From: Chiloscyllium plagiosum
Lineage: Eukaryota
Assembly (NCBI RefSeq): GCF_004010195.1
Contig: NC_057718.1
Span: 10,493,181-10,557,180, forward strand
DNA length: 64,000 nt
Reading direction: 5' to 3'
In this document: positions 3,530 to 60,724 of the stretch, piece by piece
Layout: each line of letters starts with the position of its first letter
How positions within the stretch are numbered: the stretch's first letter is position 1
Made by a program: the position numbers and the translations under genes
The notes under the pieces: generated by a model
Seen by the model: the letters and a program-made list of their open reading frames with translations, nothing else
Database searches by the model: none
What the model was told of the DNA's origin: nothing

Positions 3530-3832
3530 CTGCGGTTCAATGAAAAAAAAATTCGGCCTTCTGTCCTTCTCACAGCTTATTGTTTTAGCCCTATAAGCCG
3601 AATATAGCGGAATGCGCAGGTCTGTGCTGTACGCTGTGGCGAAGTGGAACTGGGAACGATAATACTGGCAGATTCTTTTGGGCTTAATGATCTTAAATAG
3701 GAAGGGTTCCTCGCCGTTACAGAAAAACTGGCTGCATTCGTGAAAAGAGTTTACAACTTTCCCCTCCGTTGCCCACGGGATGATGAGAGTCGAGAGCAGA
3801 ACCAAACTGCACCATCTCATAATCCAATACAT
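3530..3832 (-). CDS. ENDOD1: ENDOD1-like nuclease, exon 1 with signal peptide
   Basis: ATG 3832, hydrophobic leader ending ATEG-KV; F.EC..FF, ICQ.Y, FAT.Y....RIP.YSAY, IEPQ; donor CAG|gtaagg; 303 nt, phase 0; spliced product 271 aa. Confidence 0.88.
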
Positions 3833-3884
3833 GTTCGGCCACTTACTGCCTCTGCGATAATGAAAAGCTCAGTTTGCAGACCAC

Positions 3885-3897
3885 AGTTTTCAGTTTC
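3885..3897 (-). promoter_or_regulatory. Candidate ISRE/IRF element
   Basis: GAAACTGAAAACT matches GAAANNGAAA, about 53 nt upstream of the ENDOD1-like ATG. Confidence 0.45.
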
Positions 3898-6049
3898 GAA
3901 CTTCCTTGCATTTCTGAACAACCCAATCAGAGGAGTTCGACGTCAGGTATTATCCAACCCCGAATGTTTCTTAAGATTGTGAGCTGCCTTCTTGCAGTTT
4001 TAAGGAATTCAGTAATCCCCGCAAGTGCTATCCAGAAAGGAGATTTCCTATCAGTGAGGTTGAAGGATCTGGGAAATTGATCCATTTTATCTTAATGGTC
4101 TACCCGAGGAGTAATCGCTGGATCTGAAACAAGGCGACTTGCAGGAGATCCAGAGTCTCTTGGTGTTGCTGCCTCTAAGGATCCACTGGGACCTGTGAGG
4201 GATCTCACAATGTATCCACGCTGTCACTGGATCACACTGCTTCGTCTTGTTTTTTTTTCCCTGACTAGGAGAGTACTGCTTCTTGGACAATAAGCTTTGT
4301 CAACACACTTCCCCCTTGTGTAGGATGATGTAGCCTATACACACATCATGCTGAGAGAGCCATAATATGATGCAATTTCTTTCATACACAGAAAAAGATT
4401 CCATTCCATCAAAGTACTAATCATTGGTGACATTTAGCATTCCATCTTAGAAATGTGCACTACTTACCTTGGGAAGATAGTATTCTGAAGTTGTGACGTA
4501 AACTGGGATTTATCATTTTATTTGCTGAGAATTTGGGATTCTGGTTTTGAGTTAGTAACTGGTAGGACAAACCCATCAGAGGGAGTTGCGTTGGGAGTTC
4601 TTAACATCAGCTCTGGACCCCATGAAGTCTCATGGCTTCAGGTTAAACATGGGCAAGGAAACCTCCTAATGATTGCCACACACTGTCCTCTATTGGTTGA
4701 TGAATCAGTACCCCATCACATTGAAAATACTTGGAGGTAACTCTGAGGGCGACAAAGGTGTTAAATGTACTCTGGGTGGGAGATTTCAGTATCCACCACC
4801 AAGGGTAGCTCAGCAACAGATCGACTGATGGAGCTGGTCAGGTCCCAAAGGATATAACAGCTAGACTTGATTTGTAGCACGGGTTGAGGGAATGAGCAAG
4901 AGGGAAAGACATACTCAGCCTCACCTTTACCAATCTGATAGCTGCAGGTGCACCTGTCCATGTCAGTATTGGTAAGAGCGATCACCGCACGGTCCTTATG
5001 GAGACCAAGTCCCGGTTTACATTGAGAATCTCATCATGTTGTGTTGCACTATCACTGTGCCAACTGACGCAGACTTCAAACAGATCTAGCAACTCAAGAC
5101 TGGGCATTCATGAGGAGCTGGAGACCATCAAATGCAACAGAATTGTGTTCAGGCACAATCTGCAACCTCATTGCATGACATACCCCCATCCAACCATTAC
5201 CATCAAGCTAAGGGATCAACCCCAGTTCAGTGCAGAAAGGCATGCCAGGACCAGCTCTGTGCATATCTAAAAATGAGGTGTCAACCTGATTAAGCTACCA
5301 AACAGGAGCTCTTATATGCCAAACAGCATAAGCAGCAAGTGGTAGAGCTATTTTTTTATATATTCATTTGAGGGGTGTGGGCATTGCTGGATTGTTAGCA
5401 TTTATTGCCTATGCCTAGTTGCTCTGAAGGTGGAATAGTGCGCTTAGGGAGGAAATTCCAGGATTTTGACCTGGCAACAGTGAAGGAGTGACAATATGTT
5501 TCCAACACACAATGGTGAATGGCTTAGAGAGGAACTTAAAGATGGTGGCATTTCCATATATCCGTTGTCCTTAGAGATGGAAGTCATCATGGGCTTGAAA
5601 GTTGCATCTTGTGGAAACCACACACTTACTGCTGCTGAGTGTTGGTGGTGGTGAGTGAATGCTTGTGGATGTTGTGCGAATCAAGCGGGGTGCTTTTCCT
5701 GAAATAACATCAAGCTTCTTGAGTGTTATCAGGGCCACAGTCATCCAGGCACGTGAGGAGTCTTCCATCACTCTCTTGACGTGTGCCTTGTAGATGGTGG
5801 ATAAGCTACAGGGAGTCAAGTAGTGAATTACTGGCCACAGTATTCCTAGCCTCTTGCAGTCACTGTGTTTACGTGGTGAGTCTAGCTGAGCGTCTGGTCA
5901 ATGATAACCCCAGGATGTTGATAGTGGTGAATTCAGTGCTGGTAAAACCATTGACTGGCAATGGGCATTGGTTAGATTGTCTCTTTTTGCAATGGTCAGA
6001 TCATAGTACTTACATAGTGCAAATGGTACTTGCCAAGCCTAGATGTTGG

Positions 6050-56500: not shown

Positions 56501-56984
56501 AGAGGGATTTGGTAGACAAGCTGGGTGCTGGGAGAACACAGCAAGGCAGGCAGCATCAGGAGATGGAGAAGTTGATATTTCTAGTGTAATCTGTATGGTA
56601 GCATCTCTGAACAGATTTGATTAGAAAATATACCAGATGCCGTCTTAAAATATTTAAAATTTAAGAACAGGTTCTTCCCGCCAATTTCAGACTTATAAGC
56701 AGACCTCTCATTAGAGTTGACCTTTCTCTGCACCTTCTCTGTAGCGTGTTCTGCACTCTATTATGCTGATGTACTTATGTAAGTTTTGATTTATCTACTT
56801 AACATGCAAAGCAATACTTTTCACTTTATTTTGGTACAAGTGACAATAATAAATCAAATCAATAAAGCTGGTCCAGGTCTTGAAAAACAGAGGATGCAGA
56901 GGACACCTACCAAGATATTGTCTAGGCTGAAGAGATTCAGCTGTGAAGAAGGAATAGATAAGCTGGGGTTGTTTTACTTTGAGC

Positions 56985-57377
56985 TGAAAAATGTGTTGCT
57001 GGAAAAGCGCAGCATCAAAGGAGCAGGAGAATCGAAGTTTCGGGCATAAGCCCTTCAGGAATGGAATTGACGGGAGGCATGGACCCCCAAATACTTTGGC
57101 TTCGTGATGGGCGCACGAGGCAAGTGGCTGGATATGAGTAACCACCTCATGAAATTCCTTGGAAGCGAGAGATACGATACATTCGCCCAAAAGACATCAA
57201 GACTCACTCTGTCACTGACACTTGAACTCTTACAAATCTTCAGTGACTCTTCCTGAAGAAGGGATAATGCCCAAAAAGTTGATTCTCCTGCTTTGATGCT
57301 GCCTGACCTGCTGCGCTTTTCCAGCAACACATTTTTCAGCTCTGATCTCCAGCATCTGCAGTCCTCACTTTCTCCTA
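56985..57377. mobile_element. Inverted Penelope terminal repeats enclosing an R2-like ORF fragment
   Basis: 17-bp flanking duplication GTTGTTTTACTTTGAGC at 56968 and 57378; internal 57064-57256 encodes FGFVMGARGKW. Confidence 0.75.
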
Positions 57378-58456
57378 GTTGTTTTACTTTGAGCAGAGTC
57401 GATTAGAACATAGAACAATACAGTCAAGTATAGGCCCTTTGGCCCACAATGTGGTGCCGAGCATTTAACTTAATCTAAGATCAACCTAACCTACACCCCC
57501 CCCCCCCCAATTTACTGCTGTCCATGTGCTTGTCCAGCAGTTCCTTAAATGTCCCTAATGTCTCTGATTCTACTACCACTGCTGACAGTGCATTCCATTC
57601 ACCAACTGAGGTGAAAGTGAGGACTGCAGATGCTCGAGATTAGAGCTGAGAGTGTGGTGCTGGAAAAGCGCAGCTTGAAAATCGATATTTCGGGCAAAAG
57701 CCCTTCATCAGGAATGAGGCTGGGAGCCTCTGGGATGGAGAAATAATTGGATCTACCTCTGACATCTATACTTTCCTCCAATCACCTTAAAATTATGACC
57801 CCTTGTGACAGCCATTTCTGCCCTGGGGAAAAGTCTCTGGCTATTTACTCTATCTATGCCTCTCATCACCTCCATCAAGTAACCCCTCTTCCTTCTTCTC
57901 TCCTAGCTTACTCAACCTCTCTTTATAAGACAAGCCCTCCAATCTAGGCAGCATCCTGGTAAATCTTCTCTGAATCATCTACAAGGGATTGAGGGGGGCG
58001 GGGAGGTGGGAAACCTGAGGTGTACTAACTTCTGAGGGATGTACACAAGGTAGCTACAGAAAAGCATTTAAACTTAGTAAAGAGATCAGTAATGAGAGAC
58101 ACAGGAGGTTTAGAGAGAATTTGAGGAATGCTTTTCATCCAGAGGTTGTGGGCGTCTGGGACTCACTACCTAAAAGATTGGTGAGAGTGGGAATCCTTAA
58201 GACATTTCAGAACTATTTAGATGAACACTTGAGACACCAGAGCACACATGTCTATGGGCCATTTGCTGTAAAAAGGGGTTGGGATAAATGGATCTTTGAT
58301 GACTGACATGAACACGATGGGCTGAAGGGCCTTTTTCCTCATGTAAAAACTTTTAAAGTAGTATAAGGTTAGGCAACCGTTGAACTCAATTTTAAGCCAT
58401 GTTTTTCTCTTCATAGACGATGACAGAGATTTGTGTTTCTCCAGCACTTTGTTTTT

Positions 58457-58915: not shown

Positions 58916-59103
58916 GAGGAGAAAGTGAGGGCTGGAGATCAGAGCTGAAAATGTGTTGCTGGAAAAGCGCAGCAGGTCAGGCAGCATCCAAGGAACAGGA
59001 GAATCGACGTTTCGGGCATAAGCCCTTCTTCCAAAACGTCGATTCTCCTGTTCCTTGGATGCTGCCTGACCTGCTGCGCTTTTCCAGCAACACATTTTCA
59101 GCT
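58916..59103. mobile_element. Inverted Penelope terminal-repeat pair (family A)
   Basis: Near-perfect inverted repeat; 15-bp TSD CTTACTTCTGTCATC at 58901 and 59104. Confidence 0.85.
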
Positions 59104-60724
59104 CTTACTTCTGTCATCCAAAGGAATGGACTTATTTTTCGAAGAAATTGTAAATTTAGTCCAAGAGGCATAAGCTTTCCAGATCATTACTGATATGGTC
59201 AGCTGTTAGGATGAATGGAGAGTCATATTATAACATAACCCTTTTTTGCTTTAATAAATTGTCAATAATCTAAACAAAACATATGTAGATGCCGGCAATT
59301 CTGAAATTAGAACATAAAAAAATGGAAATTCTTAGGTCATATGAACAAGGATAAAGACTAGGAGAAAGTGAAGACTGCAGATGCTGGAGATCAGAGTCAA
59401 AAGTGTGCTGCTGGAAAAGCACAGCTGGTCAGACAGCAACGGAGGAGCAGGAGAATCAACGTTTCTGGCATAAGGCCCTTCATCAGGAATTCTCCTGCTC
59501 CTAGGATGCTGCCTGACCGGTTGTGCTTTTCCAGTAAGGAATAAGAGTAGGCCACTTGGTCCTGTCAGTTTGCTTAGCCATTCAATAAGATCATGGCTGA
59601 TATGTTTAACCTAAACTGTACATTCCTGCATATTCTCGATAATCTTTTATCTCCTTGGTAATCAAGCATATATTTATCTCTGTTTTAAAGAAATTCAAGG
59701 ATTCTGCATCTATTGCATTTTGAGAAAGAAAATGACAAAGGTTCTCAACCCTCAGAGAAAAAAATGTTTCCTCATCTCATAACTAGATTCCTGCTTATTT
59801 TTAACCTATGACTCTTAGTTCCAGAATCTCCCACAAGAGCAAACACTTTTTCAACAGCCACCCAGTCAAGTTCCCTCAGGATCTTATATGTTTTGATTAA
59901 GTTAGCCCTGACTCTTCTAAATTCAGAGAATACAGGCCTAGCCTGTCTAGCCTTTCCTCAAGGCAATCTGCTCATAACGTGTTTTGATTGTGATCTGGCC
60001 TGAAATTAGATAGTTAAAGCAATAAACTAGTTCCTTTTGTTAAGTCAGACATTATCTACTTGCAAATGTACATTTGAGAAGAATTATTTAAAGGGATGGG
60101 AAATTGTATTTTGGGTCTCAAGGGTTTCAATTGGAAGCGATGACAGAACAAATCTGGAAACTTTTTTTTAAATGGAAAATAAATATGACAGGCAACATTT
60201 ATGGAGAGAAACAATTAATGTTTCAGTTTGATCATTTATCAAGTCCAAGCCTGTTCCTGCCTCCACAGATGTTGCCTGATGTGATGAGTAAGACCTTTAG
60301 ACCTGGGAGTAGAAGTTGGCTATTCACGTCATCAGCATCAGATTATTGCATATAATAATCCACAACTCCACTTTCCTGCCTTTTCCTTATAATTCTTGAT
60401 TCCCTTACTGGTTAAAAATTTGTCTCTTTCAGTCTCAGCTGGGGGAGTATTTGAGGCAGGAATCCTCATCCATGTACTTGGGTGAGGACTTGAAATGTCA
60501 TAACAAGCCGATTGCACATTGACATCTGATTCCAATGTTGTTGCTGCATGCAACCATAAGGAAGTCAGAGAAATGCTACTCAGAGAAAAAAACCTTAATG
60601 CCTCGGCGACTTTGAGTAAAGAAATCAGAACTACTCTGTGACTTAAACTCAGGACTGCTTGCTTACAAATTCAGTACAAAATCTCTAAATGAAATTCACA
60701 TCCAGTTCCTTTGTGAAACTGTAA

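Follow-up and report, generated by a model that had tools for sequence, protein, structure and literature searches.

An R2 fragment at the head-to-head junction of a Penelope-like element insertion in Chiloscyllium plagiosum

Penelope-like elements (PLEs) leave insertions of a characteristic form. In the parts of Craig et al. (2021, PMC8557442) that deal with insertion structure, an inverted, 5′-truncated copy lies beside the element, the terminal repeat carries a hammerhead motif and a tail of 30–40 bp is present at one end only, a tail that is also described by Frangieh et al. (2024, PMC11167929). The in vitro reaction cuts and extends both strands of the target, and two adjacent internal start sites bound the tail (PMC11167929). 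The insertion described here lies in a 64,000-nt stretch of the Chiloscyllium plagiosum genome, which is called the window throughout. It shares with the published tandem and inverted insertions (PMC11167929 and the same parts of PMC8557442) the inverted 5′-truncated copy next to a direct copy, the 30–40-nt tail at one end, the hammerhead motif in the terminal repeat and the target duplication, and it fits the cleavage and extension of both strands seen in vitro. It differs from them in that 185 nt of an unrelated element, an R2 retrotransposon, stand at the head-to-head junction. PLEs can retrotranspose host genes in trans, which is the only mention of this kind in the sections of Craig et al. 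at hand (PMC8557442). In a limited literature search we met with no account of foreign sequence lodged where two PLE arms join head to head, which is no proof of absence.

Template switching by LINE-1 (L1) gives rise to chimeric retrocopies, U6-L1 and similar, and twin priming by L1 gives rise to inversions. Like the L1 chimeric retrocopies, our locus joins what would be two unrelated transcripts in the same orientation, within one target duplication and with little or no homology at the joint, and like the twin-priming inversions it has the inverted halves expected of priming from both target strands. The L1 cases differ in their enzyme, which here would be that of a PLE with a GIY-YIG endonuclease, and L1 chimeras carry the foreign piece at the element's 5′ end, whereas here it lies inside, with one half of the mobilised element on either side. 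The reverse transcriptase of R2 itself performs end-to-end template jumping in vitro and copies separate templates without homology. Consecutive homology-free copying is common to that system and ours; in our locus, however, R2 is the captured sequence and not demonstrably the enzyme, and the flanks and duplication are of PLE type. Parts of two elements share an orientation here and lie inside a single target duplication, all as one event, which is the make-up of a template-switch chimera. Chimeric retrocopies are a known kind of event, and the locus is one in a class of elements for which we found no prior description of such a copy. Its value lies in the natural evidence that it offers on PLE integration, a poorly understood process.

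Anatomy of the insertion and its flanking repeats

The insertion occupies positions 56968–57394 of the window. It is bracketed by a 17-bp direct repeat, GTTGTTTTACTTTGAGC, whose copies at 56968–56984 and 57378–57394 are identical at 17 of 17 positions in a repeat comparison within the window; the final four nucleotides of the left copy, GAGC, also fit the usual outer end of a short arm. Between them lie two inverted arms, complementary at 34 of 34 positions in the outer part (56981–57014 against 57309–57342) and 83% complementary in the inner part (57022–57056 against 57258–57292). Inverted Penelope repeats of 'family A' within a 17-bp duplication are thus present where a first-pass annotation of the sequence had placed them. 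The left arm (56985–57063, minus strand) is an inverted short PLE terminal unit, spanning unit positions 7–93 and tail-less. The right arm (57248–57377, plus strand) is a full terminal unit (positions 1–129), including a 35-nt tail (57343–57377, plus strand) that is confined to this arm, as the left arm stops at the mirror of position 57342. Both arms extend to their usual inner ends, on the left ...CTTCAGGAATG, with AGGAATGAGG as the natural continuation of that arm, and on the right TCTTCCTGAAG..., so nothing was lost at the junction. The central stretch of about 185 bp is part of neither arm, and the R2 piece occupies the exact spot where ordinary head-to-head pairs have 0–12 nt.

The inner halves of the window arms differ by about eight substitutions and three indels, and the outer 34 nt by none. 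In seven other pairs the arms differ at 0–5 of about 90 positions, against the more divergent inner halves in the window. Private variants, an extra T in a T-run and TTTGATGC, are common to both window arms. Taken alone, the locus is a dead fossil, a frameshifted remnant of 61 codons with no function.

The assignment of the flanking repeats to Penelope, proposed in the first-pass annotation, is borne out by GIY-YIG frames upstream of the repeat, by head-to-head pairing and by the one-end tail. A genome search with the Pfam GIY-YIG family returned 14,403 first-look candidates; 47 of 150 scored at an E-value of 0.01 or better, all above the family cut-off. In 11 of 20 fetched loci, which cover the endonuclease end of the frames only, a repeat copy lies on the same strand 50–650 nt downstream of the GIY-YIG motif, against a chance expectation of about 1.3 in 20 (estimated from 12 repeat matches per 64-kb window), and several of the GIY-YIG frames continue into the repeat. 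These data support the flanking repeat as the probable 3′ terminal unit of PLEs. In 269 kb of sampled sequence, minus/plus arm pairs within 800 nt of each other numbered 13, and 10 of these are −13 to +32 nt apart. One arm of the sampled pairs is full, to unit position ~125–129, the other ends at ~79–95, and target duplications of 13–14 bp were seen by eye in five of eight pairs. A survey of junction gaps, which combined counts of exact anchor patterns with loci picked by eye, found exact inner anchors 0–12 nt apart at 3297 loci genome-wide. In its normal insertion this repeat forms a head-to-head pair with a 13–17-bp duplication, and just one of the two arms has a 35-nt tail.

The hammerhead label of the repeat rests on visible core motifs around stem II, and the ribozyme is to be read as putative. 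In well-kept copies the motifs CTGA[T/A]GA, GGGC-loop-GCCC and GAAAC can be seen, and they are decayed in both window arms. The hammerhead-like motif of the left arm (57026–57063, minus strand) reads CTGAAG-GGC TTAT GCCC GAAAC, with its CTGAAGA core 3 nt short. That of the right arm (57253–57283, plus strand), compared with better copies, reads CTGAAGA AGGGATAATGCCC AAAAAGTTGA and is the more decayed of the two. The hammerhead families of Rfam gave no match at E-values up to 1 in the window or up to 10 in a well-kept copy, and the only Rfam matches were sub-threshold microRNA hairpins caused by the palindrome. Since published PLE hammerheads are minimal forms (PMC11167929), such a miss does not exclude a hammerhead.

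The R2-derived centre

The first-pass annotation had put the central stretch at about 190 bp. The stretch is there, with a shorter R2-derived length of 185–187 bp (57061/57063–57247). From 57064 to 57247 it reads in the sense (plus) direction of R2, as indicated by DNA matches to family copies and by a protein match, and bases 57061–57063 can be attributed either to the left arm or to R2. A residual open frame of 61 codons plus TGA (57071–57256, plus strand) has the translation originally given; it lacks a start codon and does not represent a gene. Searched against PDB sequences, the 61-aa peptide found as its top match residues 1057–1110 of a 1121-aa R2 protein (9nl2_A, E 7.6e-4), in an alignment that takes in YFGFPLGARGKW (YFGF.LGARGKW). 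Pfam returned for the same peptide a chance-level match to LinB-like_C only (E 0.16).

At the DNA level, window positions 57058–57262 match at least 39 other places in the 3.56-Gb genome at 79–94% identity, in a search that scored 40 of 64 first-look candidates, all on chromosome-scale contigs. In the 11 places that were fetched, similarity to the window is confined to 57061/57063–57247, and the places are alike among themselves over far more sequence. Six copies were extended: four align over about 4.3 kb, another (L018) aligns in pieces over the same span, and the sixth (L015) is 5′-truncated; reading frames are broken in all inspected copies. A 531-aa frame of L018 matches 9nl2_A at E 1.2e-100, 9nl3_A at 2.2e-93 and R2Tg (9dou_A) at 3.2e-93, followed by Bombyx R2Bm (8gh6_A) at 1.3e-39, with LINE-1 ORF2p at only about 1e-13; Pfam RVT_1 is found in it at 1.5e-24. 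A 339-aa frame of a further copy (L017) aligns to residues 869–1111 of 9nl2_A (E 4.5e-54) through the zinc knuckle and the restriction-like endonuclease, and includes C..C...H...C, KPDL and VDVTV stretches. C2H2-like and Myb-like strings are visible in the translations of this copy, and Pfam gave no significant match for the N-terminal part. Sequence comparison thereby confirms the parent family as an R2 non-LTR retrotransposon, with a predicted reverse transcriptase closest to R2 proteins. The peptide had been proposed to be an R2 C-terminus, and both its own PDB match and the matches of its parent copies, at E-values down to 1e-100, agree; the search for a parent element that the annotation had suggested led to these decayed ~4.3-kb copies.

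Placed on a 4306-nt family copy, the R2 piece corresponds to positions 3827–4017, that is, to the last 61 codons of the open reading frame minus the final two. It covers only the part after the nuclease core and is without the last ~290 nt of R2, including the 3′ UTR. Family copies end in ...AGT GAC AAG TGA, and the window reads ...AGT GAC TCT TCC TGA. Because the R2 stretch stops two codons before the native stop, the TGA in the hammerhead motif is a fusion product. The annotation had observed that the stop coincides with the hammerhead CTGA, and it does (57254–57256 within 57253–57256), but this stop was made by the fusion and is not that of R2. The window has five C in the run at 57084–57088 (plus strand) where six of six aligned family copies have four, which shifts the frame, and four public runs hold contigs of related R2 copies in which the extra C is likewise absent. 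With that base removed the frame gives ELTGGMDPKY, as had been noted, and the family copies read ELTGGVDPKY.

The piece is 88.6–93.5% identical to six family copies, which are 87–95% identical to one another. As it is as diverged from the copies as they are mutually, it dates from the family's period of activity. A nested R2 insertion was ruled out, the piece being without the R2 3′ end, and for the same reason the piece was not placed by R2's own target-primed insertion. R2 is intronless, and the captured piece has neither poly(A) nor an RNA 5′ end, features that would mark an origin from RNA.

Junctions and the origin of the insertion

The arms and the R2 piece overlap by 1–3 nt at the left junction and by 0–1 nt at the right. 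The event is unique in the assembly. With up to three mismatches allowed, a 28-mer across the left junction has a single occurrence in the 3.56-Gb assembly. A 26-mer across the right junction has 50 matches at up to three mismatches, which are ordinary pair centres or unrelated flanks; seven inspected near matches have upstream sequence unrelated to R2, and the exact right junction is found genome-wide in the window only. Among 40 places scored with the whole insertion, none spans either junction. TCTTCAG, the one longer similarity, is common to the R2 sense strand and the inner end of an inverted arm, 4 nt from the right junction, and its polarity gives no simple primer–template pairing. We also considered CTTCAGTGAC as a normal part of the PLE unit, which would amount to a 10-nt microhomology, and ruled this out: it lies 2–6 nt upstream of TCCTGAAGAAGG at six loci genome-wide including the window, and the inspected upstream sequences are unrelated.

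In contigs from public runs X1 and X5 (organism A) and X2 (organism B), the sequence takes in the left flank, the duplication and the left arm's first 20–24 nt, with 4–10 differences in about 205 nt, and ends within that arm. These contigs hint that the insertion is real and present in relatives too. The public-run contigs are mostly repeat copies, and none is seen to bridge the R2 junctions. Contigs that skip from 57056 to 57248/57250 were considered as an empty allele and rejected, as they are ordinary head-to-head pairs of other loci.

Foreign sequence recurs at the centre of other pairs of this unit. Anchors lie 160–190 nt apart at 214 loci, most of which simply have longer arms, and about 12 of the first 50 listed show other sequence in the centre by eye. 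Five such loci with foreign centres of 160–190 nt were picked, and all five have one outer duplication, of 10–16 bp. The centre of one (L066) is the 169-bp 5′ part of a SINE-like sequence without its 3′ end, a form that the ordinary insertion of a SINE does not yield. In another (L065), a 6-nt snap-back precedes sequence that copies, at 97%, unique DNA lying 0.6–0.9 kb downstream on the same strand. In a third (L063), the centre and the adjoining PLE piece together copy, at 95%, a locus at a distance of 480 kb, and this insert looks like a 5′ transduction. Both traced sources are on the same contig as their inserts. These other centres cut both ways: they show that the junction takes up sequence, yet in two of them the source would be nearby DNA or a read-through transcript and not free RNA.

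We favour, somewhat above an even chance, a single PLE insertion in which the bottom-strand cDNA switched template to sense R2 and then joined the top-strand cDNA. The PLE endonuclease would cut both target strands 17 bp apart, and each 3′ end would prime reverse transcription of a short PLE terminal RNA, from a distal start site to give the right arm with its 35-nt tail and from a proximal one to give the tail-less left arm. In the usual outcome, the two cDNAs would meet head to head with 0–12 nt between them. In the present case, the bottom-strand-primed cDNA would have completed the right-arm template, jumped to a sense-strand R2 template at a point two codons short of the R2 stop, copied 185 nt in the direction of the R2 5′ end and finally become linked to the inner end of its partner cDNA. 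A single event is argued for by the one 17-bp duplication that brackets the whole structure, by an architecture that is that of ordinary insertions of this PLE unit, by the fit of the anatomy to the published features of PLEs (PMC11167929 and the relevant parts of PMC8557442), and by the intact inner ends of both arms. The sense-to-sense arrangement of the R2 piece and the 3′-side arm points to a cDNA running from one RNA onto another, the missing R2 3′ end to a placement other than by R2's own insertion, the recurrence of foreign centres to uptake at the junction, and the identity of the piece, within the range among family copies, to capture while the R2 family was active. From this we infer that a polymerase switched templates, that it was the PLE reverse transcriptase and that its R2 template was RNA. 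The two arms, the tail on one of them, the single duplication and the insert at the meeting point match the two-strand priming and two start sites seen in vitro, to which the locus would add the uptake of foreign sequence when the cDNAs are joined.

Several observations weigh against the template switch. Microhomology is minimal, so nothing marks the landing site; the annotation had proposed a switch through microhomology, and the switch stands as the best explanation with its microhomology much weakened. Because the piece is internal to R2 at both ends, either fragmented RNA or two internal switches would be required. The location of both traced sources on the contigs of their inserts means that DNA-templated copying or 5′ transduction could apply here as well. 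The inner halves of the arms are far more divergent than their outer 34 nt, and Rfam recognises no hammerhead in the repeats.

We regard it as rather unlikely that the centre is instead DNA-level filler, a stretch of R2 DNA or R2 cDNA put into a gap by repair synthesis or end joining, with no jump by a reverse transcriptase, either during the joining of the two cDNA ends or afterwards at a break in the palindrome centre. The insert copied from unique DNA 0.6–0.9 kb downstream (L065) is what templated repair would give, junction overlaps of 0–3 nt are compatible with end joining, and long palindromes are fragile. A centre break, however, usually deletes sequence, and both arms are whole to their usual inner ends. 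Inserts of 160–190 nt are long for repair filler, and the template would have had to act in trans, as the 64-kb window holds no other R2 sequence and the contig no further R2 copy among the 40 scored places. Lower again, improbable in our view though like the filler still a live rival, is a 5′ transduction, in which a source PLE unit lay in an R2 copy just before its stop and a read-through RNA of R2 and unit was retrotransposed as one. The insert shared with a locus 480 kb away (L063) is a precedent, and the greater decay of the right-arm hammerhead region is what an old source copy would show. Such a source should carry the right junction, but the exact junction is confined to the window, its seven inspected near matches are unrelated to R2 upstream, and no R2 place scored with the whole insertion continues into the repeat; moreover, the private variants common to both arms suggest one template type for both.

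Two further readings carry very little weight. An assembly artefact that joined unrelated repeats is highly improbable: palindromic repeats are hard to assemble and no public-run contig was seen to bridge the R2 junctions, but the perfect 17-bp duplication falls exactly at the outer ends, contigs from X1, X5 and X2 carry the left flank, duplication and left-arm start, and five further loci have the same architecture with foreign centres. A chimeric R2–Penelope family that transposes as a unit, the other origin raised in the first-pass annotation, has the structure itself in its favour and no other point, and it is refuted for this assembly. The 28-mer of the left junction has no second occurrence, neither junction is spanned by any scored place, and such a repeat is absent from the corresponding positions of the other 11 fetched R2 copies, so that the suggested search for further copies of the junction leaves a one-off event.

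If the template switch is the right reading of this locus, it may belong to a wider behaviour. It is possible, though we hold this only tentatively and at less than an even chance, that converging cDNAs jump templates during PLE integration in vivo and that in a measurable minority of events they copy whatever nucleic acid is at hand, be it R2 RNA as here, or elsewhere the 5′ part of a SINE or DNA or a transcript from nearby. Head-to-head PLE pairs would then preserve in their centres, like fossils, the molecules that were present at PLE integration complexes, and sense RNA of a then-active R2 family would have met a PLE complex in the germ line. The interest of the locus itself is modest; that of the general pattern, and of the R2 copies outside rDNA, is higher.

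The parent R2 family outside rDNA

The parent copies are not at the 28S R2 site, as the flanks of the 11 fetched copies are unlike one another and unlike 28S; these flanks are unique, and their duplications are tiny or none. All five full-length 5′ ends start with up to 28 nt, GGCGGGAGTAACTATGACTCTCTTAAGG or decayed forms of it, and this leader is identical to the genome's own 28S directly upstream of the R2 site (L056, L060 and L062 show this sequence, and we take them to be 28S from their sequence context and the conserved 28S region). The 3′ ends read ...CCAAAAT, often followed by AGCA, to give TAGC as in 28S downstream of the R2 site. Position −28 is the commonest cut position of R2 ribozymes in the available part of PMC3774820. 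Rfam gave no ribozyme match at E-values up to 0.1 in three full R2 copies. A 28S leader on dispersed copies indicates that their RNA probably came from 28S-resident elements, and the parent copies look like processed R2 RNA copied into sites outside rDNA.

R2 in cartilaginous fishes was reported in 2026 (PMC13188248, as excerpted). The parent copies resemble vertebrate R2 of lineage A (9nl2, 9nl3 and 9dou; PMC13188248, in the same excerpts) over the reverse transcriptase, linker and endonuclease, and share with it the 28S leader from the R2 target site. They differ from it in their many unique non-rDNA sites and in the broken frames of every inspected copy. Non-site-specific R2-like elements of the German cockroach are likewise R2 relatives scattered genome-wide, but the copies here differ from them, on the portions of that account at hand, in retaining the 28-nt 28S leader (PMC7650587). 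The parent copies thus look like copies of RNA from elements resident in 28S, and less like a clade of their own that has taken up a new target. Dozens of non-rDNA R2 copies that start at the −28 cut bear on the degree to which R2 is bound to its target, which matters in practice now that genes are inserted with R2. The first-pass annotation had suggested that the captured piece would record an R2 lineage in this genome. Such a lineage is present, but the piece is unneeded as its record next to the other copies of the family, and a different R2 stands in true 28S context on small contigs (L059 and L061).

R2 copies outside and within 28S rDNA

The dispersed R2 family, the parent of the R2 piece in the window, is approximately 4.3 kb long and is represented by at least 39 copies besides that piece. 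At their 5′ ends (L013, L014, L016, L017 and L018; L-numbers denote other loci of the same genome), dispersed R2 copies carry up to 28 nt of the 28S sequence that immediately precedes the R2 site, and the 3′ ends (L003-L012) often read ...CCAAAAT+AGCA. Loci L054, L055, L057 and L058 also enter into this description. The flanks are unique and different for each copy, and the target duplication is small or none. These elements have the appearance of R2 RNA that was processed by the ribozyme and then copied into sites outside rDNA.

Genuine 28S context holds an R2-like element that is distinct from the dispersed family (L059, at approximately 1500-2760, and the whole of L061). This element lies at the R2 site or 14 nt past it, and in it a 5′ UTR precedes a reading frame that contains zinc-finger and Myb-like strings. 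In L059, a 28S stretch is duplicated around it.

Foreign sequence within and beside PLE pairs

In five other head-to-head PLE pairs (L063, L064, L065, L066 and L067), foreign sequence of 70-170 nt occupies the junction, and one outer target duplication brackets each pair. The centre of L066 is the 5′ part of a SINE-like sequence, and in that of L065 a 6-nt snap-back leads into DNA copied from 0.6-0.9 kb downstream. The L063 centre is likely a 5′ transduction, with its source 480 kb away.

PLE and R2 are neighbours at a further site, L002, where a complete head-to-head PLE pair (234-478) directly adjoins the 5′-truncated end of an R2 copy (475-1970). No junction is common to L002 and the R2-PLE insertion of the window.

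A short motif upstream of the PLE unit

In a few PLE units, CTTCAGTGA stands 2-6 nt upstream of TCCTGAAGAAGG, at 6 loci genome-wide with the window included (window 57237-57263; L076-L081). The sequence further upstream is unrelated. The reverse complement of the CTGAAG of the PLE unit is CTTCAG, and CTTCAGTGA in this position may represent a very short snap-back.

Ordinary pairs and neighbouring repeats

The PLE unit of the insertion at 56968-57394 also forms ordinary head-to-head pairs at window 58919-59105, with a 13-bp duplication TACTTCTGTCATC, and at 59358-59537. The palindromes of both pairs give rise to sub-threshold Rfam microRNA matches (mir-3122, 50 bits versus a gathering score of 92); these matches are false. 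A longer PLE-unit copy at 57603-57752 is adjoined by a very abundant, unrelated repeat (57753-57960, minus strand; 7005 first-look candidates at approximately 80% identity).
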